64,000 nucleotides of DNA from Cyanophora paradoxa CCMP329 (GCA_004431415.1 QPMI01000522.1:272042-336041); one strand, 5' to 3'; counted from the first letter of the stretch, positions 35,591 to 64,000 are shown. Numbers and translations are program-made. The notes: generated by a model from the letters alone, not told the origin.

Positions 35591-35944
35591 AGGGCCATCA
35601 ATGGGCCAAACGCGAAAAGTCAACTCCGAGAGCTCGAGACTCGGAAGTGACGCTTGGATTGCGGAGGTTCTTATAACCGCCGCAACAGCTGTGGGGGTAC
35701 CCCCTCCGAGGCTGGCGATCGCGGCGATCACGACCCTGGCGATCGCGATTTTCTCCCGATCGCGACCCTTTTCGATCGCGATTTCGAGATCGGGGACATT
35801 AATGCGATCGCGAGAAAGGAAAAATCGGAAAAGGCCGAAAAGTGCCGTTTTCACGCGTGAAATCGATCGAAAACGAGGGTTCGAATCCCGGGCCCGGATT
35901 TGGACTTGGTCAGAATCTCGAGTCAAAATGGGAGAAAAATGTGA

Positions 35945-36032
35945 CCTGGGACTTGGGACTTGGACTTGGACTTGGGACTTGGGACTTGGACTTGGGACTT
36001 GGAAGAGTTGGAATCAGAGTCTGGACCCAAAA
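35945..36032 (+). repeat. (TGGGACT)n box 1, 8 units (some TGGACT), plus conserved flank
   Basis: CC(TGG[G]ACT)8 TGGAAGAGTTGGAATCAGAGTCTGGACCCA. Confidence 0.9.
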
Positions 36033-36060
36033 GCGGGGAAATTTTCGGACGGGGAGAAAA

Positions 36061-36531
36061 ATGTCAGGCAATCTCTATTACGATTTTCCCTTTGAGTTGA
36101 ATATGGCATTCGAGAGGTTGCGCGAGTTCTGGCGTTGGCACCTCACGGGACATGACATCCCCGACGTAACACCAGAGCCCAACACACAGGGCGTGCTTGA
36201 AGTCATCCGTCAATATCCGCGTCGATTCAATGAATGGATTGAGTTCCACGCGACGAGCCGTTTCCAGAGCCTCCCCGAGGCCATACGCGAAAATTTCGTG
36301 AGGCTGGTGGGACCAGGCTACGACAACCCTAACAATCATAGACCACGCCCAGCTGGCGTGACACGCGAAGCTCGAGAAGACCGTAGACTTTTCCGCAGGG
36401 AATTGAGAGAGGATAGACGGAGGCTTTCAATGGGGCTCCCGCAGATTGTGAGGGGGTACAGCCCGGATTACGAGACTTACCAAGAATTGTACGGCTTCGA
36501 AAATCCCTTTGAGAGGGCACTACCAGGGTGA
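36061..36531 (+). CDS. Viral hypothetical protein (156 aa)
   Basis: Uninterrupted ORF; ATG 36061 preceded by the element-wide upstream motif (AAATTTTCGGA...GAAAAATG). Confidence 0.6.
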   Translation: MSGNLYYDFPFELNMAFERLREFWRWHLTGHDIPDVTPEPNTQGVLEVIRQYPRRFNEWIEFHATSRFQSLPEAIRENFVRLVGPGYDNPNNHRPRPAGVTREAREDRRLFRRELREDRRRLSMGLPQIVRGYSPDYETYQELYGFENPFERALPG

Positions 36532-36870
36532 GGGGCCAGGGGGGCCCCTGAGGGTGTACCCCCCACCCGAGACTCGACCTTCGGCGGACGCACTCGGGCG
36601 ATTTCCGTCAGGCCGGCTCCCTTTTTCTGCCTTCGGTCCAACGCTAAATTTGGCTTTTTTCAGGCCAGTTGGCAACGTTTTCCGTTGCGAACTAGACCGC
36701 GAAAAAAATCGCCCACAAAACCGCGGTCCGCCGCCATTTTGGCTCACTCTTGAAACGGGTTCGCCGCCTTCTCTCAGCCCAAGGAAACCCCGCCTCTCCG
36801 AATTTTCACAAGTCCGCCCTCACAGTCACCTCACGTTTTGCCTTTGCTGATTTCTTTTCCCTTTGCGCAG

Positions 36871-37940
36871 ATGTCGATTCCCGCTGAGCTTGCCGAGGAC
36901 TTCGCCTTTGTCCAAGCAACGTGGGCTAACTCCGGTGGCACTCAAGGGGCTACCCCTGAGATGGAGCAGCGCGCCGACGCTCTGGGGTACATCTACAATT
37001 ATGCCATCTTACGCGCCACTGGCCCCGAAGTGCAACTTCTCCCCAAGTCCGCCTTCACGTCCAAGGCCAAGAAATCCAAGTCCAAGCAACCCAAGCCCGA
37101 GCCCCCCGTCGACGTGCCCCCCGTCCCCGGCTGGGTCAAGACCGCCAACGGCTGGGGCGACCCCAAGCTTTTCGCCGAGTCTGCTGCCGAGACGCTCGCC
37201 TGGGCCTACCCCCTCAAGTCTTCACGAATTACCCCCCTCCGTCATCGTCGTCATCTGCCCCTCAGCCCGTCGCCGAGCCCGCCCCCGAGCCCGCCGATGA
37301 CGCCAAGTCCGAGGCCTCTGACGTCGAGTCTGACATCAACGACTTCATCGACTTTGACGTGCCGATTCCATACGACTCTGAGTCGTCTTCTGACTCTGAA
37401 GGCGACAACGAAAACCCGACTCGCAAGCGCCGCATTATCAAGACCAAGTCAATCGTCAAGAAGAAGTTCATGGAGACTACGTCATTCACCGACAACTCCG
37501 AGCGCGTCAAGGACCCCGCCAAGGCACACGAGAAGGACTTGAAGCTCGGCGCCGGCATTGCCCGTTCTCGCGTGACGTCACACTACAGCGAGCGCCTGAC
37601 TCAGCACGTCAAGACCATTGAGAAGCGCGTCCTCTGCAACGAGCTCCGCAAGGAGTTGGAGCGCAAGCGGCGCCACGAGCGCCTTGTCCAGTACCAGATC
37701 AACAAGGCGCGGATCGCCGAGCGCAAGCAGAAGGAGGCGGCCGAGCTCAAGGCGCGCATCGAGGCTCAGCAGCAGCGCGAGGCAGAGGCGGCAGCGGCCT
37801 TGGCGGCGCAGCGCGAGCGCGAGCGGCAGGACTTGGTGCAGGCAGCGCAGTCCCTTCCCCGCATTCCCCTTAAGTCGGCGCCCGAGGGCCTCATTGAGTT
37901 GGTTTCCGATGACGATGACTCTGACTTTGAGATGCTGTAA
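36871..37940 (+). CDS. Viral hypothetical acidic/basic coiled-coil protein (one frameshift at C-run ~37210)
   Basis: One added C joins MSIPAELAEDF...WAYP to PQVFTNYPPP...EGLIELVSDDDDSDFEML*; NLS-like RKRR; C-terminal SIM-like IELVSDDDD. Confidence 0.65.
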
Positions 37941-37998
37941 ATAGTATTGCGTCATTCCATTGTACATACTTGTAAAAATTGGCCGACTATTCAGTTAC

Positions 37999-38130
37999 GA
38001 CTTGGCGCGATCCTGGGACTTGGGACTTGGGACTTGGGACTTGGGACTTGGGACTTGGGACTTGGGAAGAGTTAGACTCAGGGTCTGGGCCCAGAATCTC
38101 TCTGGATCTGAGAGTTTGCCGCGCCAAGTC
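37999..38130 (+). repeat. (TGGGACT)7 box 2, bracketed by an 11-bp perfect inverted repeat
   Basis: GACTTGGCGCG (37999-38009) and CGCGCCAAGTC (38120-38130); flank AAGAGTTAGACTCAGGGTCTGGGCCCA homologous to box 1. Confidence 0.9.
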
Positions 38131-38353
38131 CCTAACCACCGGGCAGACATGTAGAGGGGTACGGAAATCTGCATATGACGTTTCTGGTGACATTCCAGGT
38201 GAGATTTCAAGCGAGGTAGAGTCTGAACTGGTGTACGACTTGTAGCATGATACTGGACATGAAAGCTCACGAGAGTATGCAACCGAAAACGGATGTGAAG
38301 AGGGGTAGGAGTTTTCGTGTGAGATGTCGAGAGAAGGAGGGTACGAGATGGGA

Positions 38354-38400
38354 TACGAGTAAAAAAGACTACGAGTAAAAAGACTACGAGTAAAAAAGAG
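38354..38400 (+). repeat. Three direct repeats TACGAGTAAAAA(A)GA
   Basis: Copies at 38354, 38370 and 38385 in the purine-rich spacer between boxes 2 and 3. Confidence 0.85.
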
Positions 38401-38477
38401 TATGAGGAGTGGTAGGAGTAAAAAAGTCGGTAGAAAAACTCACCTGACTTGTCTGACAAATTTCTGATCCTGGAGAA

Positions 38478-38591
38478 AGTCTGGGCCGGGACCTGGGTTT
38501 CAACTCTTCCCAAGTCCCAAGTCCCAAGTCCCAAGTCCCAAGTCCCAAGTCCCAAGTCCCAAGTCCCAAGTCCCAAGTCCCAAGTCCCAGG
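38478..38591 (-). repeat. (TGGGACT)11 box 3, inverted relative to boxes 1 and 2
   Basis: (CAAGTCC)11 at 38511-38587; reverse-complement flank AAGAGTTGAAACCCAGGTCCCGGCCCA. Confidence 0.9.
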
Positions 38592-38612
38592 TTTTTCTGA
38601 ACCTAGGGCAAA

Positions 38613-38978
38613 ATGGCCCTGCTCCGGTGCACCGACTCGCAAGACGTCGCCTACAACGTCCTGGTCAACTCGGACGTACCCCCGAGTGCCTTGGAGTTTC
38701 CCTGGAGAGTGGACAGGGACAGGGTGAGCAAGACGTTTGGAGGGCGCAAGCACTACCTCTCCCAGCTGATCCTCGGGAAGTCGCCACGTGGACGCTACGT
38801 GGAACACATCAACGGCAACCCGCTGGACTACAGGAGGGAGAACCTGCGCTGGGCATCAATGTCGGAGATTCGCAAGAAGAGGAGGGGGTACGCCAATTTA
38901 CAGGAGAAGAGCGAGGAGATTCGGGAGATGATGGAGGCGACACAGGTGCTAATGCAGCTTAGCCAGTCTAGACGCTAG
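38613..38978 (+). CDS. HNH endonuclease-like protein (HNH_3 type, degenerate)
   Basis: VEHINGNPLDYRRENLRW compared with the canonical VDHINGNxLDNRxxNLR. Confidence 0.8.
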   Translation: MALLRCTDSQDVAYNVLVNSDVPPSALEFPWRVDRDRVSKTFGGRKHYLSQLILGKSPRGRYVEHINGNPLDYRRENLRWASMSEIRKKRRGYANLQEKSEEIREMMEATQVLMQLSQSRR

Positions 38979-39780
38979 TGGTGTGAATCTTGGTGTCGTA
39001 CTCGCGACCGACCGTTTCCCAGGCCACGTAAACTTCGGCTCCGGCGCCTGGCGCTGTCGAGTTGGTAGTCGCAGTCGTGTAGTCCGCCTCTGCCTCAATT
39101 AGTTCGGCCATGAGGGTAGAGCCCACGACCATTCCAGAGGTAGGCATTCCGGCGATGTTGTTGTACAATTTGAAAGTGAATTTCGTGAAGAGGAGCCGGG
39201 GCCAGACCTGGGTACGGGGATTCGAGGCGCCGTATGAATAATCGGTACCCGAGGCGCCGCCCGTGGTGGCATTCGTCATCATCTCCTTTGCGGTCATCTT
39301 CCAGAGGTTGTACATCTCAAAGGGAACGGCCTGCGTGGTCTTGTGTGTGGCATCGATGAGGGCGCCATCTAAATGCGTTTTGATGTTCGGATTCGCACCA
39401 TTCCCGAATTTGCGAGTGAGGGCGGTGTTAGCGGTGAACTTGAGTTCGAGCACGCGAATGGCGGGCCGATCAGGCACAGAGGGCTCTATCTTTTTCAGGA
39501 GGCCCGAGAGCCAGAGCGCCTCCGCCTCATCCGCGCTCACGCCCGAGTCGATGTCAAAGTACACGTACACGGAGCAGGAGGCGGGATTCTCGAAATCGTT
39601 GGAGGTGACGCGCAACATGACGGGATTCTGGACCCTCACGGTGAGCGGGGTGGCGTAGTTTCCGTCCCACTCCACCTTGTCCGTCCCTGCGTTGGCCACG
39701 TTCCCAGCGTTGCCGTAGAAATCGGGGACGATCGAGCCGGCAGACACGGTCTTCACGATGGTGGCCGAGGTGGTCGGCAT
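38968..39780 (-). CDS. Viral beta-rich hypothetical (putative structural) protein, paralog A
   Basis: 270-aa intact ORF sharing QNPV, SGL.KK..P, R.LE.KF, PR..FT.F.F and G..L.AEL.E with its neighbour. Confidence 0.7.
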   Translation of the reverse strand: MPTTSATIVKTVSAGSIVPDFYGNAGNVANAGTDKVEWDGNYATPLTVRVQNPVMLRVTSNDFENPASCSVYVYFDIDSGVSADEAEALWLSGLLKKIEPSVPDRPAIRVLELKFTANTALTRKFGNGANPNIKTHLDGALIDATHKTTQAVPFEMYNLWKMTAKEMMTNATTGGASGTDYSYGASNPRTQVWPRLLFTKFTFKLYNNIAGMPTSGMVVGSTLMAELIEAEADYTTATTNSTAPGAGAEVYVAWETVGREYDTKIHTTSV

Positions 39781-39803
39781 TTTGCGACCTCAAATGAGAA
39801 AGA

Positions 39804-40483
39804 TTATCCGTGAAAGAGGGTGATGTCGCCACCGATGTTCATGACGCGGGCCCCAGGCACAGAGTCAGCGTCGGTGCCGTACGCGTAGGAAATCGAGCAC
39901 TCACGCAGCTCCGCGCAGAGGCTGGCGCCCGTGCTGAAGTGGGGCTGGTCGGCGGCGTAGGAGAGGGGAAGACCTGGAACCTGAAAAAGGTGAAGGGGAA
40001 GCGGGGTAGAGTCGAGCCGCGTGGGTTGCCGCCCGTGTAGAGGGCCCCCAGGGTCGCGGGACTTGGATTGAATTTCGTGAAGAGCACGTCGCCCTTGAGC
40101 GTACCCCTCATCTGGTAAGTTCCCGTACCCGGAAGATTCGAAGAACTGGGGTACCGGTTCACGGTGGGGCCGTACCCCGTCTCCCTGAACTTGACCTCGA
40201 GACAGCGCAAGACGTTGGCAGTGGCCGTGGCAGGTGCCACCTTTTTCACGAGTCCTGATTCGTGCAGCAGCTCGATAACCTCTGCGCTGAGGCTCAGAGG
40301 GTCGAAGAAGAGCTGGTAGGAATAAATCTTGGGCGTGGCGTAGGCGTTCTGAACGACCTGAATCACGACGGGATTCTGCAGAAAGACGTCGACGTAACTG
40401 CCGGAGGGTATGCGTGCGAAATCCTTGGTGTTGTTGCCAACGTCAAGTGAGCCGCTGAGGGTCTGGTACCAGTTGGAAGTCAT
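39804..40483 (-). CDS. Viral beta-rich hypothetical (putative structural) protein, paralog B (frameshift ~39965)
   Basis: One added base restores ...GASLCAELRECSISY...ITLFHG*, aligning with paralog A GSTLMAELIEAEADY. Confidence 0.7.
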
Positions 40484-40522
40484 TTACCCCGGGGCAGATA
40501 TTTTTTCGGATCGTAGAGGAAA

Positions 40523-42654
40523 ATGCCCCGCTTCGTATTCGTGAAAAAGCAGGTGGTGCAGGCTCCGCAGTATGGCGTGGAGCCGATCTCGCTGACTGTG
40601 GGCAGGCCCCAGGTGCGATCGGGCTCCGTGCTCAACAACGGGAACAGTACGTACGGCTTTCAGCTGAACTGGGTCGCGGTCACCAACGCCGTCAAGTACA
40701 AGGTGTACAGGGCGACCAGCATCAACGGCCCCTGGGATCTCGTGGCCACGGTGAATGCGCCAACCGTCACCTACACGGACTCTCCCTTTAGTTTGGGGCC
40801 CAGCGACTCTACCGCGTGGCGGCGGTTCGCGAACAGGGCAGCAGCAGCACGGGCTCTGATGGCAAAGCCCCGCCCACAACCTACGCACAGTCGCTTCTCT
40901 ACACCCACGAGGGTGCCATGAGCAATTACATTCTCTTCCAAGGCATAGGCGGCTTCAGCCCGCAGATCGAAGCCTACACCACGCTCACGACCGCCACGGC
41001 CCAGACCTACGGCGATTTTATTGCCGGGGCGGCCCCGCGTCTTCGGGCTTCCCGAAACCCGCCATAGTCGTCACAATCAACTGGGTGGCCATGGAGGGCG
41101 CGGACTCGATTCGAATTTACAGGAACGGTACGCCAATCGGATTTGCGAGCAGTGCCCTGTCTACCTCGTACATTGACGATAGCACTGCTCTTACGTGGGG
41201 CACGGAATACTCTTACCAGGTGGCCGGCATCGTGGGCGGTGTCGAATACGACAAGTCCGATCCGCTCCTGGTCTGGACTATGCCAAACGCCCCCACGAAC
41301 GTGACGGCATCAGCACCCAACGACCAGCAGCAGCCTGTCAGCCTCAGCTGGACTGCGTCCACGGGAGCGACGGGATACAAGATTTACAGAGACGGGGCCT
41401 ACCTCACAGACTCCGCGACCAACTCCTACAGCGACACGACCACCGTCTGGGGTACAGGGTACGAGTACCAGATCTCCGCGACGAACACGGGAGGGGAGGG
41501 GCCGAAGAGTATTGCGGCGTACGTCACCACGGACCCGGGGCGCCCACTGGGCTCACTGCAACCCCCGCGGCGGGGCAGCACAGCCTGTTGTGCTCGAGTG
41601 GTCGGTGCCGGTGACGGGCGTCACCGTCTCCTACAACATCTACAGGGTGGCGTGTTCCTTGCCAGCGACACGAGCAGCCCCTTTTCGGACACAACGACCG
41701 TTTACGGAACCACTTACACTTACACCATCAAGGGCGTCAACCAGATCGGCGAGGAAGGCCCTCAGTCCTCGTCTGCCAGTGCAACAACTGCAAACGCTCC
41801 TGTTTTGGGTACATTCTCCTACACCGGGGCCGACCAGACTTTCGTAGTACCAACGGGGACTGTGGCTGTGCGTGTCATCGTATGGGCGGCCGGGGTGGAG
41901 GCGGAGAACGCGCAGGTACGGGGGTCCGTGGAGGCGCGGGTGCTTGCGTAGTTGGTACATTGGCTGTGTCCTCGGGGAGACGCTCATCCTTGTTGTTGGA
42001 TGCGGCGGCCCAAAGGGTGTATCGGGGACTGCCACTGCTACCGTCTACGGAGGTGGTGGAAGGGGCTGGAGCCATAGCGTCGATCCGGAGTACAAAAACG
42101 GCGCCGGTGGTGGTCGTTCTGCAATTCAGCGCGTTGCAGGGACCGACTTGGTTGTTGCAGGGGCCGGAGGTGGGGTACATGTGATTCGAATGGCGGCGGG
42201 GAGTAGGCGGGGGTTGACCGGTGGTGCGGCTGGGTTGGTTGGAGTAACCGGAGAGATACCGGCTCAAGGAGGCACCCAAACCGCTGGCGGAGCCGGTGTT
42301 GTGGCCTCAGGGGCCAGGCCCAGCAACCCGGGAACTTTGCGCCAAGGTGGAGAGACTGGGCCTGATTCAAGCGGCTACAGGTTCGGTGGTGGTGGTGGTG
42401 GTGGTTACTTCGGTGGAGGCTCTGGGTCCAGCAGGAGCGGAGTGTCAGAGAACCCAATAGCAAGAATGTTTGGAGGTGGCGGTGGCTCGAGCTACATAGG
42501 AAACTTGACGGATGCTACGGTGTATCCTGGGTCCGGCCAGGTGGCAGGAAATAGCGGAGACGCTCACTACGCAGCAGGCATTGGTAGGGGCGGCAACGGT
42601 GGCTCGTCTTTCAGCGACGGTGGCAACGGTCGAATTGTGATACTCGCGGTGTAG
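40523..42654 (+). CDS. Fibronectin type III repeats plus C-terminal glycine-rich domain; putative fibre/adhesin (multiple homopolymer frameshifts)
   Basis: FN3 signatures LNWVAVTNAVKYKVYR, PNAPTNVTA..LSWTASTGATGYKIYRDG..YEYQISATN..GEGPKS; then FSYTGADQTFVVP..GETLILVVG..GGGGGGYFGGGSG..GGNGRIVI. Confidence 0.75.
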
Positions 42655-42674: not shown

Positions 42675-43734
42675 TCAGCTCGCCAGTGCCGCTACCTGGT
42701 CTTTGAGAGTTTGAACTTCTTGTGAAAGTTCCTGAATTGCCTTCAACGACAGGGAAATGAGCCTGTCGTAGTTTACCCCGAGAAATCCATCCGCGTTCTC
42801 GAAAACGAGACTCGGGAAGACGCCTTGGACTTCCTGTGCGATGAGACCGTAATCCGTTTTCGAACCCCCGAGGATGTGTTCTTCCAGGTGAACGACACGG
42901 GATTCAGCTGCAGCAGAAGAGGGAGAATGCCCGACATGCTCGCGACATTTTCTTTCAGGCGGCTATCGCTCGACGAGTTTGTCAGGTATCCTTGAGCATC
43001 CGAATAAACGGCTCGGTTTCCATCGCCCGTGAGCGTCGAGACGATGAGCCGACCCGTGATGCCAACGCCGACGGTTCCGCACAGCAGTCGTTCGGTGCCG
43101 TTGTTTCTCAAGGATAGACCAGAGCTGACGCTTCCGCTATCAACGATTGAAGTGTTTGCTATGCTTAGGCCATTAGTAGGGCCTTCGATTGCCGAGGTAA
43201 ATAGAGTACCTGTAACACCAACGCCAAGAGTCCCACAGAGGAGTCTATCGTTTTCGTTGTACTTTATAGCTACGCCTGAACCACCGCCATTTATGTACGG
43301 TGACGTTCCGGTAATTTGCAGCTTATCGTCCAATGTAACGATGCCCGCCAAGTTTGAAGCCCCGCTCACCCTAAGCCCCCCCACCACGTTTGCTCCGCCT
43401 CCTTGCACATACAGAGCCGCATTCCCCTCCCCGTTCACAGTCCCATTAAAGGTCACCTGATTCGTGGTGTACCCGCTCCCGTCCCAGGCCCCGTTCGTGA
43501 CGGTGAGCCTCTGCGTCCTCACGCGCCCCGGCACGGCCGACCCGCCCTCCCGCGTGCGCATCTTGTCGCAGCGCAGCTCGCCGACGCGGACGAGGTCGGC
43601 CTCGGAAAAGGGGACGGCCGTGGCGTTGTAGGGGCCTCGGTGGCCTGGTTTCCGAGGGTGGTCTCCTTAATCGTGTGATCGCCCTTGTGATTCACGCTGG
43701 CAGCATAGGTAAATAGAGGGACAGCGACCGACAT
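42675..43734 (-). CDS. Fibre protein with C-terminal peptidase S74 intramolecular chaperone (2 frameshifts)
   Basis: SSDSRLKENV...LNPVSFTWK, then after a +1 correction DYGLIAQEVQGVFPSLV...GVNYDRLISLSLKAIQEL plus coiled coil. Confidence 0.85.
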
Positions 43735-43758: not shown

Positions 43759-46700
43759 TTACATAAGCAGCTTGCCGATCGCGGTCCAATGAATAAAAAG
43801 CTGGACAATTTGGGTGGGCGTGACCGTCATTCTGGGTTGGAATCTCACTTTAACTGTAAAGCCAGTGTGACTCACCGCCGTGACGTTGGCCCCGTAGAAA
43901 TCGACATCCGTGCTGCCGCCGGGATTGATGTCGAACGAGGGGTTACGTTAATAACCGGCGTTGGGTTTGCTGGGGTCCCCAGTCCGCCTCCAGTGTCGTA
44001 CGCCTGTCCGAATGTAATGTTGAACGTCACCGTGTATGTTGAATTGATGTTAAACTCCGTGTACGCAGCGTAGGAGTGGAAGGACGTGCCGTGCGTTATG
44101 TACGCATCCATGTTCACGTTTCTGTGCCCGTGGCTGGTGAGCGAGTACTCTGTGTGACTGTGCGTAGAGGGTGGGAAGGAAGTGGGTCGGTCGATGACAT
44201 TATCCCAGTACACATTGTGACTGTGTGTAGAGGGGGGGAAGGTAAGTGGCTTGCCCGTTACGTTGTCCCAATCCACGGAGATGTTCGTCAAGTCCGGGGC
44301 CGTCCAGTCGCTGATCTGAGAGATGGTGTGCTGGTGGTCTGCGTGGGGATACGTACTCGGCTTCCCCGTGATGCTATCCCACGCCCACGTTGTTGGTATC
44401 ACGGGTATCGTCGGCCTCCCGCTGAGATCTGCATACGCCCCCGTGTGTGCCACCGTCGCCAGCTGCGGCACGGCAACGCCCACGGTGCTCACGGCCTGGC
44501 TCGCCCCCGGCGCCATGTGCCACTCGTAGTTCTGCGATGCAAACACGGGCTGGCCTGGCTCGGGCGCCCAGTACTCGATGCCTTTGGCGATCTTCTTGGT
44601 GTATGGTGCTGCAGGCCTGTCAACCAATTTATCGACGTAGGCCTTGGGTACCAGCCAGTTTGCCTTGGGGCTCTGCGAATTGATCCCGTTGTCTATGAAG
44701 GCCCCGTAATTCCTGAAGGCCTCGGCCTCCCACCAATCCTGCATGCGGAAGGTCCCGGGAATCTCGAGGCGCGAGTTGGCGTCCGCCAGGCGGGCCACCT
44801 GCGCCCCTCCGTTCGACGAGACGCCCGAGTGACGGATGGCCGAGCCGAATTCGCGCCTTAGGGCTTCGATGTGATTGATCCTGTTGAGGCCCTCCTGGTA
44901 GACGGCAATTAAGACGCGCTTCCGCCCCTTGGTCTCCTCCTTTATCATCTGCTTCAGGTCGCGCATAAGTCGACTCAGGGCGAGCGAAGTCGACCCGAAG
45001 CCCTCCTGCATTTTAACGGTGAGCTGGGAGAGGAAGAGCACGGTCGCGCGATCGATTTCGAGCAGGGTCTTCTGGTCCTTGGGGGTACGGTAATCGTTGA
45101 TGCTGTTGTCGAGCGCGCGAATGAAGGCCTGCAGCTCCTTCGGCTCCTTGATTTCGTTTAACCGCAGCTCCTGGGCCAAGAGCGAGGCCATTTCGCGCGC
45201 CTCCGAGGGGTCGTACACACCCAAAAATCCGGAGCCCAGCTCGCCCTCCAGCCGATTAATTCGGTTGCGCAGCTGGCTCGCCTCGTCGCCCCACGTCTCG
45301 ACGCCCCAGTCGTAGATCTGTTGCGAGAGCTCCGCGATGAACTGTATGGTGTCGGTCGCCCAGTCGACGGGGTACTTGAAAAAGTTCTTCACGATTTCTT
45401 CCGCGCTGCGCCCGTTGATGATATCCACGATCACCTGCGCGATGGCGCCCGCGAGGATGGACAGGCCAAGTCCGCCCACCGTGCCGATCCTCATTTTCGT
45501 GAGGGCGCTCAGGGCGGACGACATGCCCGTCTGAAGGCCAAAAGAGCCGACCGTCATGATCATCTGATCGCGGAACGTATCGAAGAACTCGGCCTCCCCT
45601 ATCTTGCCCTGCGAGAGCGCCTGGTAGGCCGAGAGCAGGCCGCCCGCCGTCGCCAGCCCAAGGCCGGCCGCCGCCGCGCCCGCCCGCCGCATGGCCCGCG
45701 AGCCCGTACCCCCCAGCCCGGCGCCCACCAAGTCGATGCCCGCCCCCTGAAATAAATCGGCTGCCCCGAAAGACATGCCGTCGTTGTTCGCCGTACCCAT
45801 CGCGGAGAAGAGGGTCTCTGCGCTGAAGGCCTCCTTGGCCACCCCGGGCCGCCTGGCCCTCGGGCGCCCCAGGAAGGCGTCGCGCTGCTCTTTGGTGGTG
45901 AATCGCTCGAGGTCGAAATCGGCAAGGGCGTCGGCGGTGGCGCGGTTCCAGTCGCCGTAGGGCATGAGGGCGTTGCGCAGAATAACGTCCGAGTCGCCCA
46001 TCACGCGCCTGTCGAGCGTCTGAAATACGCCCTCGGAGGGCAGGCGAGCCGTGCCCGGGCGCATTTCCTCTACGGAAACGTCGTCCCTTTCCGCGAGGGT
46101 GATGTCGTCCGGGCTGGCCGAGCCCACGCCCGCGCCCTCGTCGGCGTAGGCCCTTCCCCTCCTTTTTAACAGTTGATTGGCCTCCCGTTTCAATGCTTGG
46201 TACTCTGTCTCTACCTTGGTCTTTCTTGCCTCTTCCTCTGCCGCCTTGCGCTCTGCGATCTTCCGCCTCTGCTCTTCTATCTCGGCGTTGCGTCTCGCCG
46301 CGTTCTCCTTGGCTTGCTGCTTCCGCTCTTCGATCACCCTGTTTGCGTACTCCTTGTCCGCTTGGGCCTTTCTGTAGCGCTCCTCGATCTGACTCTTGGC
46401 CTCGTCTCCTCTCTTCCTTAGATCGCCCATGAATGCCGTCGTATCTATGTGAATCTTGTATTTGGCGGGTGGGTGCTCACGTTTGAAGGCCTCCAGATCG
46501 CGCACCATGGCATCGTACTGCGCGAGCCCCTCCGCTGGAATGATGGCTCTTCGCATTTCCCAAAATTTGCTCAGCTTGCCCACGTAATCGACCATGGAGA
46601 GGTACGCGCTCTGTGCGCCCGCGCTCACCGTTTTCGGATTGGCTCGCAGCTCTGCCAAAAACTCCCCCTTTTGTATCCGGTACAGTGACCATTCGAGGGC

Positions 46701-48867: not shown

Positions 48868-48892
48868 TTTATCCGCGAGAGAGAAAAATTAA

Positions 48893-49369: not shown

Positions 49370-49389
49370 TTAAGGGGGCCTGCGAAAAT

Positions 49390-54681: not shown

Positions 54682-55026
54682 CTACTCTTTAGTGATCGCG
54701 GCGGCCTTCCGCTCGAGCGCCTGCTTGATTCCGAAGCTGGCGCTGGTAGCCTTGATTAGCATGTTCGTCTGCCCGTGTGTGAATCCGAGGATGAACATAA
54801 TTCCGCCGGTGGGGTCGTCGTCGAAGAACTTGAGGGTGAGCACGTATTTCGAGAGCAGGCCGAGGGAGAGGCCGTTGACGGCGACTTGCGCGGCGAGCTC
54901 GGCTGCGTGGCCCGCCCTGTTTTCGCCTTCGTGCGAGGAGAAGGCGGCGTCGATGAGGGAGCCGGATGCCAGGCCGAGGGCGTACTGCACGATAGCCTGG
55001 GAGAGCCCTAGGAGCACCTTTGACAT
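54682..55026 (-). CDS. Viral membrane protein resembling a conserved NCLDV membrane family
   Basis: Hydrophobic helices with G.LID..F...E...Q...G......Q......K pattern. Confidence 0.55.
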   Translation of the reverse strand: MSKVLLGLSQAIVQYALGLASGSLIDAAFSSHEGENRAGHAAELAAQVAVNGLSLGLLSKYVLTLKFFDDDPTGGIMFILGFTHGQTNMLIKATSASFGIKQALERKAAAITKE

Positions 55027-55438: not shown

Positions 55439-56508
55439 TCAGGCGAGGCCGCGGTGCTTCCTGAAATTATCTATCATGCCGAGGAGCGTCTTGTCCACCG
55501 TGCCGTCGTCCGGACCCACGAGATTTTCTCCGTTGACGGTTTCGCCCTCCCAGTACTCCTTGGATCCGATGCGGAAGGGGGGCGGCTCCTCGGCCTTGTA
55601 GACGTACAAAACGTCCAGAGGGTTCGTAGAGTTGTTGGAAGAATCGATGATAAGGCAGTGGTTATCCTGCGTGTACTTATCGAGCAGGTAGTAGAAGGCG
55701 CGCTGGGAGATGATGTCGCCCCACTCCTTTGCGAGGGCCTCGCGCTGCATCGCCTGCGAGCACTTGAAAATGACAGCCAGATCAGTATTGGAGCGCAGGA
55801 CGGGATTGATGCCCTTGGCATACTGCGTCGTGATAAGGGTCATGATTTTGTAGTGGCGCCCCGCCACGAAGAGCTCGTTGAGGGCCTCGTCGTACCGCAG
55901 CCGAGCGTCGGAAATCACGTCGTCGAGCAGCACGAAAAATCGCGGGTCGACGGGATCCTCCTTTCCCGCGAGCACGTCTTCGGACTTGTTGTGCTGCATG
56001 ATCGCCTGCTGCCTCCTGAATAAATGGAAGAGCACGCCCGGGTTGTACTTGGGCCAGATGAAGCGCTGCGGGATGTACTGCTTCCAGTAGCCGTTCAGGC
56101 GATCGGTCTGGCTGATCACGATACCCCCCGGGAAGGTGCCGGAGAGGTTGAACATGAGATCGCGGAGGAAGAAGGACTTGCCCGTGCGCCGCTTGCCGAC
56201 GCAGACGACCGTGGCGTCGGACTTGACGGTGTTCACGTCGAACCACTTGAGCTCGGGCAGGCAGGCCATGCGCTCGATGCCTCCCGTCTTCGAGTTGTCG
56301 AGGAAGGCGTTGACCTGCTCGGGCGTGAGCTGCTGGCCGTCCTCTGTCATGCCCATGGCGCAGCTGGCGCCGGCGGCGGGGGCCGTGCCCGAGCCCGTGC
56401 CGGTGGCCTGGCCGGCGGGGCGGGGGCCGCGGGCGCTGCGCCTGCGGGCTGGGCGGGCTGGGGCTTGGCCGCCTTCGGCTTCTTCGGCTTCTTGGGGTCC
56501 TTGGCCAT
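55439..56508 (-). CDS. A32-like (FtsK-HerA superfamily) genome-packaging ATPase
   Basis: Walker A VCVGKRRTGKS, Walker B FFVLLDDV, AGRHYKI..LITTQY..GINPVLRSNTD, FRIGSKEYW. Core ORF is 55439-56356; likely start TAAAATG at 56508 via one frameshift in a GC run. Confidence 0.93.
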
Positions 56509-56522
56509 TTTACCCCCTTCAT

Positions 56523-56735
56523 TCAGATTTTTCGAGGGTGCTCCAGGTCCTCGTAGTCGATACCTAGCTCCAGGTCCTCGTAGTCGATACCTAGCAGCGC
56601 GCAGCCCTCTCTAATGCAGCTTTCGAAATCGCTCAGAATGTCTGGAACGCTTTGGCTGTAGTCTGAGCTGAAGAACTCATCTCGGTAATGTCGATGCACC
56701 ATCCGGATGAATTTTTCCGCCCAGGCCTCTGCCAT
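56523..56735 (-). CDS. Small acidic viral protein with internal 27-bp duplication
   Basis: LGIDYEDLE x2; flanked by direct repeat CCCCCTTCATTCAGATTTT. Confidence 0.5.
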   Translation of the reverse strand: MAEAWAEKFIRMVHRHYRDEFFSSDYSQSVPDILSDFESCIREGCALLGIDYEDLELGIDYEDLEHPRKI

Positions 56736-56768
56736 CCCCCTTCATTCAGATTTTCTTGCGACCCTGGG

Positions 56769-57245
56769 ATGAAGATCCTCGGCGTGGATGTGGGGGTCAT
56801 CAATTTCGCATGGTGCCTCATCGAATTCGATCCGCAGACAAAGGAATCCCAGATTCTCGACTGGCAGAAGATCGCCCTCTTCCCGTCTGCGCGCTGCTGT
56901 GGCCGCCTGGTTGCGCGCCTGGTGGAGGTTACTCGCGGCCATAGCGCCTTCGGCCTTCCCGACCAGATCGCGATCGAGGGCCAGAGGACGGGAATCAATC
57001 GCTGCATCGAGTGCACGCTCCACGCCCTGCTGTACGGGCGTGCGCGGATCGTGAGCCCGCGCGCCATCAAGCACTTCTTCAAGATCTCGAACCCGAGCTA
57101 CAAGGAGCGCAAGCGGGGCGCCGTGGACAAGTGCCGCGACCTCGTACCCGCCGAGCTCGCCGACATCGCGGATCGAAACGGCAAGCTCGACGACCTCTGC
57201 GACGCCTACTTAATCGCCCTCTACGCCGCGCTCAATCCGTTGTGA
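56769..57245 (+). CDS. RuvC-like Holliday junction resolvase (poxvirus A22-like)
   Basis: MKILGVDVGVINFAWCLI, IAIEGQ, YKERKRGAV, KLDDLCDAYLIA: complete RuvC catalytic acidic set. Confidence 0.92.
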   Translation: MKILGVDVGVINFAWCLIEFDPQTKESQILDWQKIALFPSARCCGRLVARLVEVTRGHSAFGLPDQIAIEGQRTGINRCIECTLHALLYGRARIVSPRAIKHFFKISNPSYKERKRGAVDKCRDLVPAELADIADRNGKLDDLCDAYLIALYAALNPL

Positions 57246-57439: not shown

Positions 57440-57448
57440 CTAGATCCC

Positions 57449-57841
57449 ATGGAGCACGCCCACTACTGCTTCAAGTGCCGCTCCAACACCAAGCTCGCCA
57501 ACGTCGAGGTGCGTACCAGCAAGAACAACCGCCAGGTGGCCGTCGGCTCCTGCACGCAATGCAGCGGCCGCGTCTCGCGCTTCATGCGCCGGGTCCTCGA
57601 GGAGGGGGCCCGGGAGACCAGCCCTCCGCCGCAGCGCCCGCAGGTGACCGACGCCGCTGGCCCGGCCGCCGGCTCGAGCCAGGCACCGGCAGCCCCTACG
57701 GCCCCGAAGCCCCCCGCGGCGCCCCGGCAGAAGGCCAAGGCGGCCCCCGCGGAGGGCGACCCGAGCCCGCTCGAGGCCCAGCCCAAGCGCCAGCGCGCGC
57801 CGAGGAAGGCGGCGAGCGAGCCTGCGATTCTTCAGCAGTGA
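57449..57841 (+). CDS. DUF5679-like zinc-ribbon protein with Pro/Ala/Lys tail; putative DNA-binding
   Basis: YCFKCR..TKLANVEVRTSKNNRQVAVGSCTQCSGRVSRF matches YCxKC...KNxR....GxCxxC...RF. Confidence 0.7.
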   Translation: MEHAHYCFKCRSNTKLANVEVRTSKNNRQVAVGSCTQCSGRVSRFMRRVLEEGARETSPPPQRPQVTDAAGPAAGSSQAPAAPTAPKPPAAPRQKAKAAPAEGDPSPLEAQPKRQRAPRKAASEPAILQQ

Positions 57842-58272: not shown

Positions 58273-58337
58273 CGGGGATCCTGGTGGGGTACCTCCTCTT
58301 CCGACCCAGTGTAATTTCTCAGTGACCCCGTACCCCG

Positions 58338-58676: not shown

Positions 58677-58678
58677 AC

Positions 58679-58956
58679 ATGCCGGAGGCGCAGAAGAAGC
58701 CCGCGAAAAAGGCGCCCACGAACGGGCAGGAGCGGCCCACCAAGGCGGAGGTGAAGGAGGCGAAGGAGAAGCTGAAGGGCCCGCCCGAATTTCCTAAGGG
58801 ACCGAAGCCGCTGTACGAGGACGTCTCGCCCGGCGAAATATTCGTGGCGATGCGCCCGACGAAGCAGGGGAAGAAGGGGCCGAGAAGAAGGACGGGAAGG
58901 AAGACAAGGCCAAGACCGATAAAATTTCAAAGCCGGCTCCTAAGAAGTGCAAATGA
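58679..58956 (+). CDS. Small Lys-rich protein, putative DNA-condensing (frameshift ~58878)
   Basis: One added G gives ...KKGAEKKDGKEDKAKTDKISKPAPKKCK*, whose TGA overlaps the next ATG (ATGA). Confidence 0.55.
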
Positions 58957-60921
58957 GGGGGCTCGCCTCGCGTTTCGCGCCGCGCAACGTGCTCGCGATC
59001 CCGGGGGGCGGGGACTCGCACATCACGCCCTTCGAGAGCGACAAGTACGCGCACTTTCAGCAGCTGATGAAGACGGCGCTGGCGAGGGCCACGCCGGAAA
59101 TTCGGTTCGAGGAGCGCGATCAATCGGACAAGCTCGCCGAGGTGGAGGCGCAGGCCATCGCCAACGCGTACTACATCAACAAGTTCCAGCAGATGGAGTC
59201 GAGCCTCGACGAGGAGTACGAGGAGGGCTTCCGCGCCTGGCTGATGGGCCAGTCGGCCTTCACCGCGAACCTGAAGGCCAAGGGAGCGGGCGCCTGCGAC
59301 GTGGACGGCAAGAACCTGACGGTGCTGCCGGGCGTGCGGGAGTTCTGCAAGTCGAAGGAGGATCAGATCACCGAATTCCTGAAGCGCAAGAAGCGCCTCG
59401 AGACGCTGGGCCCGATGAACCTCGAGGACGCGTACTACTACTACAAGTACATCATCAACGGCGAGGAGTTCAAGCCCACGAGCATCTACGCGCGCGAGAA
59501 CAAGAAGCCCGAGGAGCTGATCGGAGGGAAGTACGACCCCGACTGGACGAACCGCAACACGCGCCAGCCCTTCGCCCAGGCCGAGCCGCCCTCGAGCTCG
59601 GACAGCGAGGGGCCGGGGCCGGACGAGAGCCGCCAGCGCGACGTACCCAGGGAGAAAAGGCGGGCGAAGAAGCGGATGGACAAGGAACAGTACATCAAGG
59701 CCCGCCGCGAGCAGAAGGTGCGCATCACGGACGGGGACAACGAGGCCATCGAGGCCAGTTTCCCGGAGGCGGCCATGGGCAGAGCAATCAAGGCGGGCAA
59801 GGGCGCGCGCGAGGCCCTCATTCAGAAGGCCCTGCCATCCAAGGAACCCAGAGACGAAATGATCGAGTCAGACTCCGACAACGAAGGGGGGGCCCCGCCT
59901 CCGGGGCCTCCGCCTCCGCCGCCTCCGCCCCCCGGGCCGAAGACGCCACCGCTGCAGCCGCAGCCCGGCCCCTCGCAGCCCCGGACACGGTGGCCCGGCC
60001 GTCGGCGCCCCCAGCGGAGCAGCAGCCCCCGCCGCCGCCCCCGCCGCCACCCCGCCGCCGCCCGAGCCACAGGCGGGGCCCTCGCGCCCGCCAGAGGTGG
60101 TGGCGGCCGAGGCGGTGGCCGTTGCGGCGGCAAGGGCCGTGCTCGAGCGGGTGCCCGTCGCCGTCCAGGCTCAACTCGCAAACGCGGGGATAGAAATCGC
60201 CCCCTCGTCCCCGCGCGAGATGGAAGCCATGGACAAGCGCAGGGCCGCGTACAAGGATACGGGGCGGAGACCCGGGTATACGACGATGGACTTAAACGAT
60301 GCGCTTGAACTGGCCGCCAAGAAGGTGAAAGAGGCGACAGAAGCTCGCCGTGCGGGGCTGCTGAAGAAAATTCGCTCCGGTGCTCCAGGCAATCCAGCCA
60401 GTCCAGACGATCCCATGGACGAGGAGGCGGAAGCGGAGCGCGCGGCCAATCGGGCTCGCCGGGAGGGATTCCTTGTGAGCGTATCGCCCGAAATCGCGCG
60501 CGCTGCAGGGGACGCCGCCGTTGCGAAATACCTTGCAGAAGAAATCGATTACAACCAACTGGCATCGATAGCCCAAGCCCAGGCAGCTGGAGTCAACAAG
60601 GCACAGGCACGGATAGCAGAGCAGCACCGTGATATTTCGGACCTGGGCGGGGATGTCGTGAAATTCTTCGAAGCTGAGCGAGAAGCGGACCCGCTCGGAT
60701 CTGCGGCAAAGGGCCCCTTTATGGAGCGTGTGCGGCGCGTAGAGGAGCGGGCCCAGCAACTCATGAACTTGGATCCAGAGCGTTACTTCATGTTGGGCCA
60801 AGGACTTGCCCTGGGTTATCTTAACGGCACACGCGACTGGTCTGCGATCACGGACGCACTCCGCAAGAAGGCGTACGACGCGGACCTGGCGCGACGGGGG
60901 CCGCGCCCTCTAATAACGTAG
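58953..60921 (+). CDS. Viral hypothetical protein upstream of MCP (frameshift(s) in Pro-rich linker ~59990-60100)
   Basis: N-domain FRAWLMG..LPGVREF..GPMNLEDAYYYYKYI; C-terminal part is ORF 60097-60921. Confidence 0.65.
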
Positions 60922-60963
60922 GCGTCCACCCAAAAAATTTTCTCAACGCATCCCTAAACCACC

Positions 60964-62351
60964 ATGGCTTCCGCGCTCATCTCCACCCCACGACCGCCCT
61001 GCACCACTCGCTGCGCAGCTCCGACGCGTCGGTGCACGTGCACGAGACCTTCGACACGGCGATGCCGTTCGTGGACGAGGTGCTCGAGGTGAGCCCCGTG
61101 CAGTCGGGCGTCACCTTCGGCCAGACCGTCGACATCGTCATCCCGCACTCGGCGCCGATGTTCAACGACGCCTGGCTCCGGGTGACGCTGCCGGCGCTGA
61201 CGAACGCCGACCACTTCTACATCCCGAAGGCCGGCTACGTGCTGCTCAAGAAGGTGAAGATCTTCGTGGGCACGCAGCTGATCCACGAGTACGACGGCCA
61301 CCACGACGCCATCTACGGCGAGTTCGAGGACGACAAGTCCGTCACCGAGCACGTCGACATGGTGAACAACCTCTGGGCGCACCAGCCGCTGCGCCGCCGG
61401 GGCAAGGCCCCGAACACGCTGTACGTGCCGATCCGCATCGCGACGGGCTTCGGTCGAAAGTTCGCCGTGCCCCTCCACAAGATCCGCGGGACCGGCAACG
61501 AGATGAAGCTGCAGATCACCTTTGCGTCGCAGAAGGAGGTGACGGCCTCCTTCGTGGACGGCGGCCTGCACACGAACACCAGCCTGACGAGCAGCGTCAG
61601 CCTGGACACCAAGCTCATCCTGCGCTACGTGCACATCGACTCGCGCGAGCTGGCGCTGCACCCGAACTCGTTCACGTGGGCCGGCAAGTACGTGCAGCAC
61701 TACCACGTCCAGTTCACGTCGGGCGCCGCCATCCGCCTGCCCTTCACGGGGATCTGCTACGAGCTGATCGTGGTGGTGCGCGACAAGCCGCACACCGACA
61801 ACGGCGAGCACTTCTGGCGCTTCCGCCCGCTCGACAAGATCGAGCTGAAGTGCGACAACATCAAGGTGGTCGACAGCTCGAACCACGATGCGCACTTTTT
61901 GCGCACGGCCATCGCGCACAAGGAGCACACGCACGCCCCCACGCGCAAGCACCTCGAGCTGCTGCGGGGCGTGACCTCGATGGACGGGACGGCGGCCGCC
62001 GACGTGGCCGACGCGCTGCACCCGCACCCGTGGTCGGGGCACGATAACGTGCCGGGGACCACGGGGAACGTGACCCTTGCGGCCCACGACGCCCACAGCA
62101 GCGATATCCAGCCCCGCAACGTGGGCCAGTTCGGGACGGAGTTCATCTACTCGCTCCCCTTCGGCACGGACGTGGCGGACAACACCAAGATGTTCGGCGG
62201 CCTCGACATGGGCGCCTTCAAGACCATCGAGCTCACGCTCACCACGCTCAAGACCTACACGGCACCCAACCTGCCCGTGGCCGACATCTACTGCCGCTAC
62301 TACAACGAGATCACCTTCACCAACGGCGGCGCCTACCGCCGCTTCCATTAG
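60964..62351 (+). CDS. MCP: Major capsid protein, double jelly-roll, Nucleocytoviricota-type
   Basis: VTFGQTVDIVIPH..MFNDAWLRVTLPAL..GYVLLKKVKIFVGTQLIHEYDG..LYVPI..AVPL..IRLPFTGICYELIVVVR..FIYSLPF..GGLDMG..YNEITFTNG follows the NCLDV MCP motif order; start 60964 needs one C at ~60988. Confidence 0.88.
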
Positions 62352-62430
62352 ATTGCTTGTTAGCCAGGGTGTGCTTGGTAGGCCGATGTGAACCAATAAA
62401 TTTTCCCACTGGGATCCTAACCGAGGCACG

Positions 62431-63632
62431 ATGACGAAGGGCCACTCTATGATGGACATTGGGGAGGGCTCTAAGAAGCAGCGCCAGTCGCTGAAGAACG
62501 ACCTGAAGGCCGACATGGACGGCATCGTGAACAAGTTCCTTCCGGGCACGGTCATGCCCGAGGTGCCCGTCGTAGATGGGACAAAGGCGGACGTCTACAC
62601 GCCCGAGGATCAGGCACGTGGCCTGGGGCTCAGCGGGGGAATACGAAGACCCTGCCCGCGATGAAGTACACGCCCTCCATGGAGAAGCTGATGCGCATGG
62701 GCATCCGACAGCAGCTGCAGAACACCTACCCCAGCCGACAGATCAGCGAGGAGGACGTCGAGAATGCGTTCGTGCTGCGGAAGGAAATCATGATTCGCGA
62801 TTTCGACCAGTGGGCGATGACGGCCTTCGACCTGAAGCAGCCGGGCGTCGCCAAAATGCTCGAGGAATATTACCCCGAGCTGCTGGAGCGAATTACAAAC
62901 ATGATCGAGCAGGATATCGAAATTCAGCGCTTCGACAAGTACCAGAAGGTTTTCTTCCCGATGAACTACGATGATCTCGTCATGAAGTGGGCGCGCGAGC
63001 GCGGCTGGATCAAGACGATGGAAGAGATCGAGAAGGAGAACCTGCTCGGGCCGGCCGGCCGCTACGGGCAGACGACGGAGAACCCCCAGGGGCTGCGCGC
63101 GGGCTACACCCCCGACCTCTCGCCCATGTTCAACGCGCAGACGGCCAACATCAGCAGCGCCGTCAACAAGCCCTACGGGCGCAACGACGTGGACTTCAGC
63201 CGGGGCAACCCGTTCGGGGCGATGCTCATGGATCAGGTCGGCACGCGCGGGCCCGCGCTGGCGACGGCGACGCCGTACGCGGACCAGAACCTGCTGCCGG
63301 CCGTCGTGAATCCGGCCGTAGGAAGCCGACCCTATGCGGATACCGCAACGTTAGGCTCGATTGCGGGGCTGCGGGGCCTGGGAACCGTCGCCGGAATGGC
63401 AGGCACCGGTGAGCGCAGCCAGACCACGATTCAAACCGCCTTCCAGGCTCTCGTGAAGGGCACCGAGACCGCGCAGGCCACCCTCCTCCGCGAGACCAGC
63501 GCGCGCAAGGCGGCAATGTACGAGCAAGCGGCAAACGCCCTCCTCGGCGGCGGCGGCAGCGGCGGCGGCAGCGCAGCGGCGGCGGCAGCGGCAGCGGCAG
63601 CGGCAGCGGCAGCGGCGGACGCTAATTTCTGA
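62431..63632 (+). CDS. Viral hypothetical protein downstream of MCP (frameshift at G-run ~62637)
   Basis: One added G joins ORFs 62431 and 62661; FDQWAM..PGV..FPMNYDD resembles the 58953 protein; poly-Ala tail. Confidence 0.65.
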
Positions 63633-63644
63633 AGCACGCGTAGC

Positions 63645-63970
63645 ATGGCTGCGACGGAGGCGACGCTGGGCGAGCAAATCGAGGCGCGCTGGGGCCGCTT
63701 CCTCGACCTGCTGGAGCCGGAGGCCAAGGAGCCGGGGGTGCGGGCGCAGATCCAGTCGCTGCGCGGCATCGGGGCCACGGCGGTCATCGTTCTGTTCAGG
63801 AGGCACATCAACGCGGAGGCGGAATTGATCAAGGCGAAGGACGACTCGGTTTTCGAGAGGCTGCCGCAGGAGTACGCCTCGGCCGTGCGCTCGCTCTTCT
63901 ACGGCAGCGGCCCGAGCTGCGCGAGAAGCTCTGGCTTTACATCGAGCTCTTCGTCGAGCTGACCTCGTGA
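63645..63970 (+). CDS. Viral helical hypothetical protein (frameshift ~63904)
   Basis: One added G gives C-terminus RPELREKLWLYIELFVELTS*; upstream AATTTCTGA motif. Confidence 0.6.
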
Positions 63971-64000
63971 GTGAAAAATATTTCTAAGGGCAGGCGTAAA

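Follow-up and report, generated by a model that had tools for sequence, protein, structure and literature searches.

A multi-copy, mriyavirus-like endogenous virus in the genome of the glaucophyte Cyanophora paradoxa

The stretch of DNA analysed here (the window) comprises 64,000 nucleotides (nt) of the genome of Cyanophora paradoxa CCMP329 (GCA_004431415.1, QPMI01000522.1:272042-336041), and the element under study occupies its right part, 35.6-64 kb. The GC content is 63-76% over 1-34 kb, 52% over 34-36 kb and 56-66% over 36-64 kb. From about 36 kb through the window end, tightly packed open reading frames (ORFs) lie on both strands. The Pfam scan covered 26 ORFs in 36-64 kb and the PHROGs scan covered 24; a Pfam family was assigned to eight of the 26. 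The core virus genes are located as follows.

50726-51901, minus strand: HUH endonuclease paralog 2, 391 amino acids (aa), motifs YWVLFNTH, HAHVLV and YLSK
52777-53619, minus strand: HUH endonuclease paralog 1, 280 aa, motifs FMITIQTN, HAHILL and YITK
53851-54681, plus strand: VLTF3-like late transcription factor whose N-terminal part carries a TFIIB-type zinc ribbon (Pfam Pox_VLTF3, E 2.4e-24)
54682-55026, minus strand: small predicted membrane protein (gamadvirus family c1, hmmsearch E 7e-9; hhalign 94.5%, E 7.6e-8)
55439-56509, minus strand: A32-type packaging ATPase (Pfam Pox_A32 at 55439-56356, E 4e-5; gamadvirus profile E 9e-99)
56688-57245, plus strand: A22/RuvC-like Holliday junction resolvase (Pfam Pox_A22, E 1.2e-7; gamadvirus RuvC profile E 7e-17)
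58953-60308, plus strand: Mriya_1-domain protein (hmmsearch with family c7, which is Mriya_1 by gene order, E 1.4e-9; hhalign 95.2%)
60963-62351, plus strand: major capsid protein (MCP) of the double-jelly-roll type of nucleocytoplasmic large DNA viruses (NCLDV), 457 aa (Pfam Capsid_N at 61062-62351, E 1.4e-8; gamadvirus MCP profile, hmmsearch E 5e-7)
62661-63632, plus strand: Mriya_51 homolog (hmmsearch with family c9, E 2.6e-7; hhalign 96.6%)
63645-63962, plus strand: PEV_20 homolog (hmmsearch with family c12, E 4.7e-6)

The original prediction, made from the sequence without database searches, had named the MCP, the A32 ATPase, VLTF3, RuvC and two HUH endonucleases in this region; all of them were found, the HUH genes by their motifs and the others by Pfam. 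It had also stated that pPolB, PolB, RNA polymerase, adenain protease and integrase are missing, and neither DNA or RNA polymerases, nor adenain-type protease, nor integrase gave a Pfam or PHROGs match among the scanned ORFs. It seems that C. paradoxa carries an endogenous virus in many copies, likely a sister lineage of the gamadviruses (Mriyaviricetes), and that 35.6-64 kb represents the left 28 kb of one chromosomal copy; we estimate the probability of this reading at about 0.7. The lineage is real, integrated, present in many copies and mriyavirus-like, and it lies outside the Gamadviridae proper.

The relationship was assessed against 80 IMG/VR loci fetched with the ATPase. Eight of these match gamadvirus contigs in the supplementary spreadsheet of PMC11253617 and were therefore used as gamadvirus references. 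The ORFs of the 80 loci were clustered into 52 families, and the profiles built from them were searched against the window with hmmsearch. The families were named by the gene order of Ga0209337_1000251, with RuvC, MCP, PDDEXK and ATPase as anchors checked by Pfam. An hhalign comparison of the window ORFs with the locus families, in which the window queries were single sequences, gave three matches above 60% in 603 comparisons. In the tblastn search of the window ORFs against the 80 loci, the ATPase had relatives in all 80, VLTF3 in 78, the ORF at 62661-63632 in 43 and that at 58953-60308 in 31, while the two HUH genes had three and two and the MCP two.

The genes for packaging, transcription and the HUH nucleases have their nearest relatives among the dwarf kin of giant viruses. 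VLTF3 matches the gamadvirus profile with E 2.5e-53 and is 35-41% identical to gamadvirus VLTF3; 78 of the 80 loci encode a similar protein, convergent with the ATPase as in the window. The small ORF at 54682-55026 lies downstream of the ATPase, as does family c1 in gamadvirus loci. In the BLASTP comparison the ATPase is 49% identical (E 1e-94) to AUD57306.1, the packaging ATPase of Pleurochrysis sp. endemic virus 2 (PEV2), which is the gamadvirus reference ATPase in Table 1 of PMC11253617. The ATPase search returned 353 matches, and the 120 listed include eight host gene models and two metagenome proteins with 89% and 79% identity; other listed matches are about 50% identical, their contigs measuring up to 45 kb, and AUD57306.1 belongs to one of the clusters. 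When JGI metagenomes were scanned with the ATPase, only two gamadvirus-like contigs came up, with 50-51% identity. In the gamadvirus gene order PEV_20 is followed by Mriya_48, which here would fall just past position 64000.

The two HUH genes are paralogs (BLASTP E 8e-9) and neither has a Pfam match, but motifs I, II (HAH) and III of both align with gamadvirus HUH ORFs. Paralog 1 matches two separate HUH regions of one 39.6-kb IMG/VR record fetched with the ATPase alignment (E 6e-13 and 2e-10), which fits the statement in PMC11253617 that gamadviruses carry both HUH and HUH_long. Paralog 2 gave tblastn matches with E about 1e-5 in two loci (L076 and L055), and it may be either an ortholog of HUH_long or the product of an independent duplication. 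The structural model of paralog 1 has a predicted local distance difference test score (pLDDT) of 63. Structurally it comes nearest to two HUH transposases of the IS200/IS605 type (Z 7.7 and 7.0), followed by nickase domains of parvovirus NS1 (Z 5.6-5.7) and the TrwC relaxase (Z 5.3); these matches are only suggestive. Z values under 8 can reflect no more than a shared common fold. A Foldseek search of the PDB with the model gave nothing at E 0.001 or better, and the search of the PDB by sequence gave no useful match for HUH or MCP.

The left border of the element was examined by placing on 30000-35940 the contigs assembled from two public sequencing runs of this organism. A 2597-nt contig (depth 67 and 101 in the two runs) spans 32885-35437 and is identical to the window, and a 154-nt contig (depth 74 and 109) reaches 35609, entering the repeated part by about 28 letters. 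In run X1 the contig that follows, 35649-35795, attains a depth of 3341, some 50-fold that of single-copy DNA. In run X16, a contig joins the sequence from 35582 onward to a different flank, with 255 other letters before 35582. The step in depth and the second flank at 35582 support a genuine junction near 35.58 kb and a number of chromosomal copies in the tens. The claim of integration thereby stands, the element adjoining single-copy host DNA with a contig across about 35.58 kb, and the read depth proposed as a check gave a flank that is single-copy up to about 35.6 kb and roughly 50-fold beyond it.

Gene models of EukProt EP00741_Cyanophora_paradoxa make up 15 of 15 MCP matches, 16 of 18 HUH matches and the eight host models among the listed ATPase matches, and the HUH cluster of EP00741_Cyanophora_paradoxa includes the 280-aa protein of the window itself. 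These near-identical paralogs, labelled as C. paradoxa, bear out the predicted link to a host. Such models lie on 28 contigs for the MCP, 22 for the ATPase and 26 for HUH, 45 contigs in union, although these counts could be inflated by duplicated contigs; the search for other genomic copies, also suggested earlier, was thus answered positively. Eleven contigs carry MCP, ATPase and HUH with the same spacing. The term provirus is apt in that the DNA is virus-derived and integrated, but the element is one of about 45 copies and not a single provirus.

The phylogenetic analysis of the ATPase, with eight giant-virus sequences as the outgroup, placed the window protein, five host copies and two metagenome proteins in one clade with a long stem (98 in the Shimodaira-Hasegawa-like approximate likelihood ratio test, SH-aLRT). 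This clade branches beside a clade of 19 gamadvirus loci, PEV2 and one metagenome protein (99). In the VLTF3 tree, the window lineage is the sister of all 22 gamadvirus sequences.

A number of observations weigh against the placement beside gamadviruses. The alignment of the MCP family with gamadvirus MCPs is confined to the first jelly roll, in the N-terminal half (hhalign E 1.3e-8), and the match to a mixed profile of NCLDV-type MCPs runs over the full length (E 9e-27). In the MCP tree, from which the yaravirus MCP is absent, ten gamadvirus MCPs stand on one side of a branch (100) and the host family stands apart, its stem being about 5 substitutions per site long. For 19 of the 26 window ORFs, tblastn found no relative in the 80 gamadvirus loci. 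For five of the 12 mriyavirus core genes no counterpart was detected in the window. Among these, the profiles of Mriya_48 (c14), Mriya_50 (c13) and PDDEXK (c5) matched nothing; for the helicase there was no Pfam match among the 26 ORFs, and no VLTF2 turned up, neither of the two having been searched for with a named profile. Of the four named gamadvirus families tested, only PEV_20 was found, and the profiles of ssb, mCP (PEV_22) and PEV_27 found nothing in the window. In the ATPase tree, the program flagged a meeting of long branches. Since the trees comprise neither Yaraviridae nor the newly proposed mriyavirus-like groups of the size of polinton-like viruses (PLVs), the sister position to gamadviruses holds only relative to giant-virus outgroups. 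The element exceeds 28.4 kb within the window, and its right end and total length lie beyond position 64000. The left end at 35582-36060 could be a host repeat rather than a viral terminus, and the copy counts carry the reservation given above. On balance, the mriyavirus relationship that had been predicted is borne out by the ATPase (49% identity to PEV2), VLTF3, RuvC, Mriya_1, Mriya_51, PEV_20 and HUH, but not by the MCP, which stands apart from gamadvirus MCPs, nor by the five core genes not found; the same division, with ATPase and VLTF3 beside the gamadviruses and the MCP not, came out of the profile and phylogenetic comparisons that had been proposed.

The search of 1.84 billion representatives with the MCP profile gave 97 matches, eight of them at or below 1e-10: four host models, three short fragments and one protein of 460 aa (1e-11). 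Nothing outside the host family was better than 1e-11 in this search. None of the ten best matches outside the host carries a virus name, and one of them (P0162) belongs to contigs of giant-virus metagenome-assembled genomes. The scan of IMG/VR and JGI metagenomes with the MCP alignment found no relatives. Two matches of the MCP search (P0155 and P0184) are MCPs of NCLDV type whose jelly rolls are separated by a large inserted RCC1-repeat domain.

The capsid genes of the copies were compared using EukProt gene models, seven contigs being set against the copy on tig00021036. The ATPase is 96-99% and HUH 93-99% identical in these pairs. The MCP is 94-97% identical in three of the seven contigs and only 58-67% identical in the other four (P0008, P0316, P0011 and P0012 against P0280). 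As the ATPase and HUH proteins are nearly identical but the MCP is not in four of the seven, there are at least three capsid types on nearly identical backbones. The divergence between copies fits the long MCP stem, and it points to either cassette exchange or very fast capsid evolution, as judged from the protein comparisons.

The copy in the window is probably defective. Compared with intact paralogs, codons 1-10 of its MCP are out of frame, and so is a 51-residue N-terminal extension of the ATPase that is present in other copies. The FN3 gene described below has at least four frame changes and the S74 fibre gene one, so that frameshifts affect at least four genes overall. They may represent real decay or assembly indel errors in repeated DNA. 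The latency that had been suggested is not supported for this copy in view of the frameshifts.

The left arm of the element encodes proteins of another kind.

40517-42654, plus strand: FN3-repeat, glycine-rich fibre-like gene (Pfam fn3, E 1.5e-8), in at least four frames in the window copy
42675-43666, minus strand: fibre protein with a C-terminal intramolecular chaperone (Pfam Peptidase_S74, E 7e-6)
43872-47719, minus strand: 1039-aa protein with coiled coils and a membrane segment, preceded by a 253-aa coiled-coil ORF
47872-49839, minus strand: three ORFs of 331 aa (glycine-rich tail), 158 aa and 149 aa (all-beta)

The FN3 gene matches a PHROGs major-tail/FN3 family (E 1.3e-15) and also phrog_1589, and its FN3 units run on in other frames. 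The frameshift of the S74 fibre gene lies near 42940, and the frame 42675-42962 matches the C-termini of tail fibres (PHROGs, E 1.6e-17). Near the C-terminus of the 1039-aa protein, residues 864-926 match a tail-fibre repeat of a phage minor tail protein (PHROGs, E 5e-10); this ORF and the 253-aa one may be a single gene split by a frameshift. By these matches, the left arm at 40.5-47 kb is a predicted phage-like fibre module. A penton-like protein had also been claimed, but the gamadvirus mCP profile (c8) has no match in the window and atlas scores for a penton are only 0.87-0.88. The best candidate for a penton or small capsid protein, the 149-aa ORF at 49390-49839 (minus strand), stays no more than a candidate: its single-sequence all-beta model is of low confidence (pLDDT 55) and its BFVD matches are unspecific beta-sandwiches.

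The terminal repeats and remaining features of the element are the following.

35582-36060, no strand: left end of the repeated DNA, with four direct GATCGCGA at 35741-35813 and a (GACTTGG)n array at 35943-36002
35946-36030 (plus), 38012-38100 (plus) and 38473-38597 (minus): units of about 90 nt with (GGGACTT)n arrays
36061-36531, 36871-37542 and 37470-37940, plus strand: ORFs with no Pfam or PHROGs match and no tblastn match in the 80 gamadvirus loci
38613-38978, plus strand: HNH endonuclease (Pfam HNH_3, E 1.9e-7; PHROGs HNH families, about 1e-7)
38968-39780 and 39839-40483, minus strand: two paralogous ORFs (mutual BLASTP E 7e-12) with no Pfam or PHROGs family match
51967-52755, minus strand: 262-aa ORF with an acidic, lysine-rich N-terminus and no match to Pfam, PHROGs or, by hhalign, the locus families
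57449-57841, plus strand: zinc-ribbon protein (DUF5679, Pfam E 8e-10) with a basic proline-rich tail
60220-60921, plus strand: 233-aa ORF, helical by eye, with no match to Pfam, PHROGs or, by hhalign, the locus families

The four direct GATCGCGA at the left end fall within 73 nt; in the whole window the motif is over-represented, with 23 occurrences where 4.9 would be expected, and most of these are in the host part. The cluster at 35.74-35.81 kb is a candidate cis-acting site. The units at 38012-38100 and 38473-38597 form an inverted repeat with 89-nt arms that are 89% complementary and 370 nt apart. A 16-mer of the (GGGACTT)n units has 20 matches, all inside 35.9-38.6 kb, and none in 100 shuffles. 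The inverted units at 38.0-38.6 kb would be a candidate origin or resolution site. The ORF pair at 38968-40483 has an atlas score of 0.88, which is a lead only. A perfect 27-nt tandem duplication lies at 56540-56595, between the ATPase and RuvC genes. No tRNA genes were found in the window. Six runs guessed to be RNA contain 0.21-0.27 of the words of 32-40 kb and are uninformative on transcription.

On the host side, single-copy DNA of about 52% GC at 33700-35600 lies between GC-rich host DNA and the element; its short frames are cysteine-rich by eye, and it contains TA/TACGTA simple repeats at 35087-35111 and 35438-35494. At 30200-32400, the summed contig depth reaches thousands, with many loose ends in C-rich low-complexity DNA, which indicates a host repeat region. 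Only one of 181 stop-to-stop frames in 1-35.6 kb has a Pfam match, a 27-residue match at 21280-21756 (plus strand) to the FAD-binding domain of DNA photolyase/cryptochrome (E 5e-11). This fragment, at about 21.6 kb, is probably one exon of a host gene. The intron-rich host genes of the original prediction are thus represented by a single exon-like piece and are only weakly shown.

A probable life cycle can be outlined from what the available text of PMC11253617 proposes for mriyaviruses. It would be nuclear and rely on the polymerases of the host. Rolling-circle replication would begin with a nick made at an origin by one or both HUH nucleases, and the resulting branched or concatemeric DNA would be a substrate of the A22/RuvC resolvase. 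VLTF3 would turn on late genes, and the A32 ATPase would drive the DNA into an icosahedral capsid built of the double-jelly-roll MCP. The phage-like fibres of the left arm may bind the host cell.

HUH enzymes are known to insert DNA into eukaryotic chromosomes in Helitrons and as the Rep protein of adeno-associated virus (AAV). The only enzymes seen in the element that break or join DNA are HUH, RuvC and HNH, and no helicase fusion was seen. A further and rather doubtful conception is that of a virus-transposon hybrid, in which the duplicated HUH nucleases would both start rolling-circle replication and insert the whole genome (35-45 kb if it is of gamadvirus size) into AT-rich chromosomal sites in a Helitron-like manner with no integrase, and the capsid gene would be a swappable cassette by which elements otherwise 96-99% identical could change their shell.

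Among the other explanations, the element might belong to a smaller mriyavirus-like or polinton-like group ('Zora' and the like) with an rve or tyrosine-recombinase integrase, the integrase and replicase lying in the unseen right part. With so many copies at different sites, an efficient means of integration is to be expected, yet the 28 kb show none; the available text of 10.64898/2026.06.19.733378 describes groups with Mriya48, HUH and integrases, and mriyaviruses without integration genes. In the ATPase tree, three of the five metagenome proteins (50-54% identical) lie at open forks outside the starred gamadvirus clades, and the fibre module resembles the one reported for PLVs of C. paradoxa in the accessible part of PMC12220804. 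However, the element is already longer than 28 kb, Mriya_51 followed by PEV_20 at the window end is the gamadvirus order, the combination of VLTF3, A22/RuvC and two HUH paralogs is the gamadvirus pattern, and 49% ATPase identity to PEV2 is high. An origin of this kind seems unlikely. It is even less probable that the window holds a piece of a much larger giant endogenous viral element (GEVE) running past its end. Methylated GEVEs, given without further classification in the portion of PMC12344493 at hand, have been reported in C. paradoxa, and the MCP is closest to generic NCLDV-type MCPs; against this, Pfam found no giant-virus core gene such as PolB, RNA polymerase, primase or topoisomerase in the 28 kb, the best relatives of five genes are on contigs of 35-45 kb, and the constant MCP/ATPase/HUH spacing on 11 contigs is that expected of a compact unit. 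An assembly chimera, in which a free or episomal virus of the culture was wrongly joined to host DNA, is scarcely credible: the junction does lie in AT-rich simple repeats (35087-35111 and 35438-35490) where contigs break, and no single listed contig spans the whole junction stretch, but in two runs a contig of single-copy depth extends from the flank into the repeated part by about 28 letters, in a second contig this end (35582) follows another flank, and the roughly 50-fold depth matches the approximately 45 contigs with copies, so that no large additional episomal pool is needed.

The reading as a sister lineage of gamadviruses can be set against described systems. With the proposed family Gamadviridae (PEV2, KY346835; PMC11253617) the element shares the convergent ATPase and VLTF3 genes with the same small ORF, the A22-type RuvC, two HUH paralogs, Mriya_1, Mriya_51, PEV_20 after Mriya_51 and, in the 28 kb seen, the lack of polymerase genes, and its length of more than 28 kb is compatible with gamadvirus genomes of 35-45 kb. 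It differs in the MCP, which has 457 aa against 550-670 aa and falls outside the gamadvirus clade, and in the interval between ATPase and MCP, which holds RuvC, the zinc-ribbon protein and Mriya_1 and is devoid of the gamadvirus block of ssb, PEV_27 and PDDEXK. Gamadviruses have nothing that corresponds to its 14-kb arm, with the phage-like fibre genes and the HNH nuclease. The element has a GC content of about 60%, is integrated in about 45 copies and resides in a glaucophyte, whereas the gamadvirus host is a haptophyte. In one gamadvirus contig (L057:5806-9588, minus strand), a 1261-aa protein with five DUF285 repeats (E 1.7e-90) lies next to the ATPase; it is another lineage-specific surface-type protein.

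Yaravirus brasiliensis (Yaraviridae), compared by description only, belongs to the same proposed class and has the core of MCP, ATPase, VLTF3, RuvC and HUH with no polymerases (PMC11253617), but it possesses one HUH gene and no PEV_* genes according to the supplementary spreadsheet of that paper. Phaglo-G, of the 'NCLDV-like dwarf viruses', is likewise a mriyavirus relative in an algal assembly; in the text available of 10.1101/2022.07.28.501842, it has a high GC content (61%) and short tandem repeats on its flanks, and its authors call its origin unclear, the flanks being short, while the C. paradoxa element has a long single-copy flank, dozens of copies and a host from another supergroup. 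Endogenous PLVs and virophages of protists, including those of C. paradoxa, are also multi-copy, integrated and capsid-encoding, with phage-like fibres (the part of PMC12220804 consulted). Unlike them, the element has an MCP matching Pfam Capsid_N, the family of MCPs of large eukaryotic DNA viruses, together with VLTF3 and an A22-type RuvC, and no pPolB, rve integrase, cysteine protease or penton was seen in its 28 kb.

Relatives associated with host genomes, 'NDDV' and Phaglo-G, are described in Phaeocystis in the same available text of 10.1101/2022.07.28.501842. Because of these relatives and of the GEVEs already described in C. paradoxa, the element is less new than had been held. The literature on endogenous viruses of Cyanophora, NCLDV, PLVs and virophages yielded no paper linking Cyanophora to mriyaviruses, although the supplements of PMC12344493 and the preprints may list such loci; neither the main text of PMC11253617 nor the text of 10.64898/2026.06.19.733378 mentions Cyanophora or glaucophytes.

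It has been argued that, of all living viruses, mriyaviruses stand nearest to the giant-virus ancestor. To our knowledge, only one has been isolated, yaravirus, from an amoeba, and HUH-based replication is a prediction. It is likely that this little-known group has a culturable host in which it integrates. According to the accessible text of PMC12344493, C. paradoxa can be grown in axenic culture, its methylated genes are enriched for recent viral ancestry and mostly silent, and glaucophytes are the sister group of green algae and land plants. If the present interpretation is true, C. paradoxa would offer a laboratory system for studying the induction of mriyaviruses, integrase-free entry into the chromosome, HUH cut sites and the silencing of viral copies by the host. 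The presence of MCPs that are only 58-67% identical on backbones that are 96-99% identical is a separate puzzle. The host range of the group would be widened to glaucophytes.

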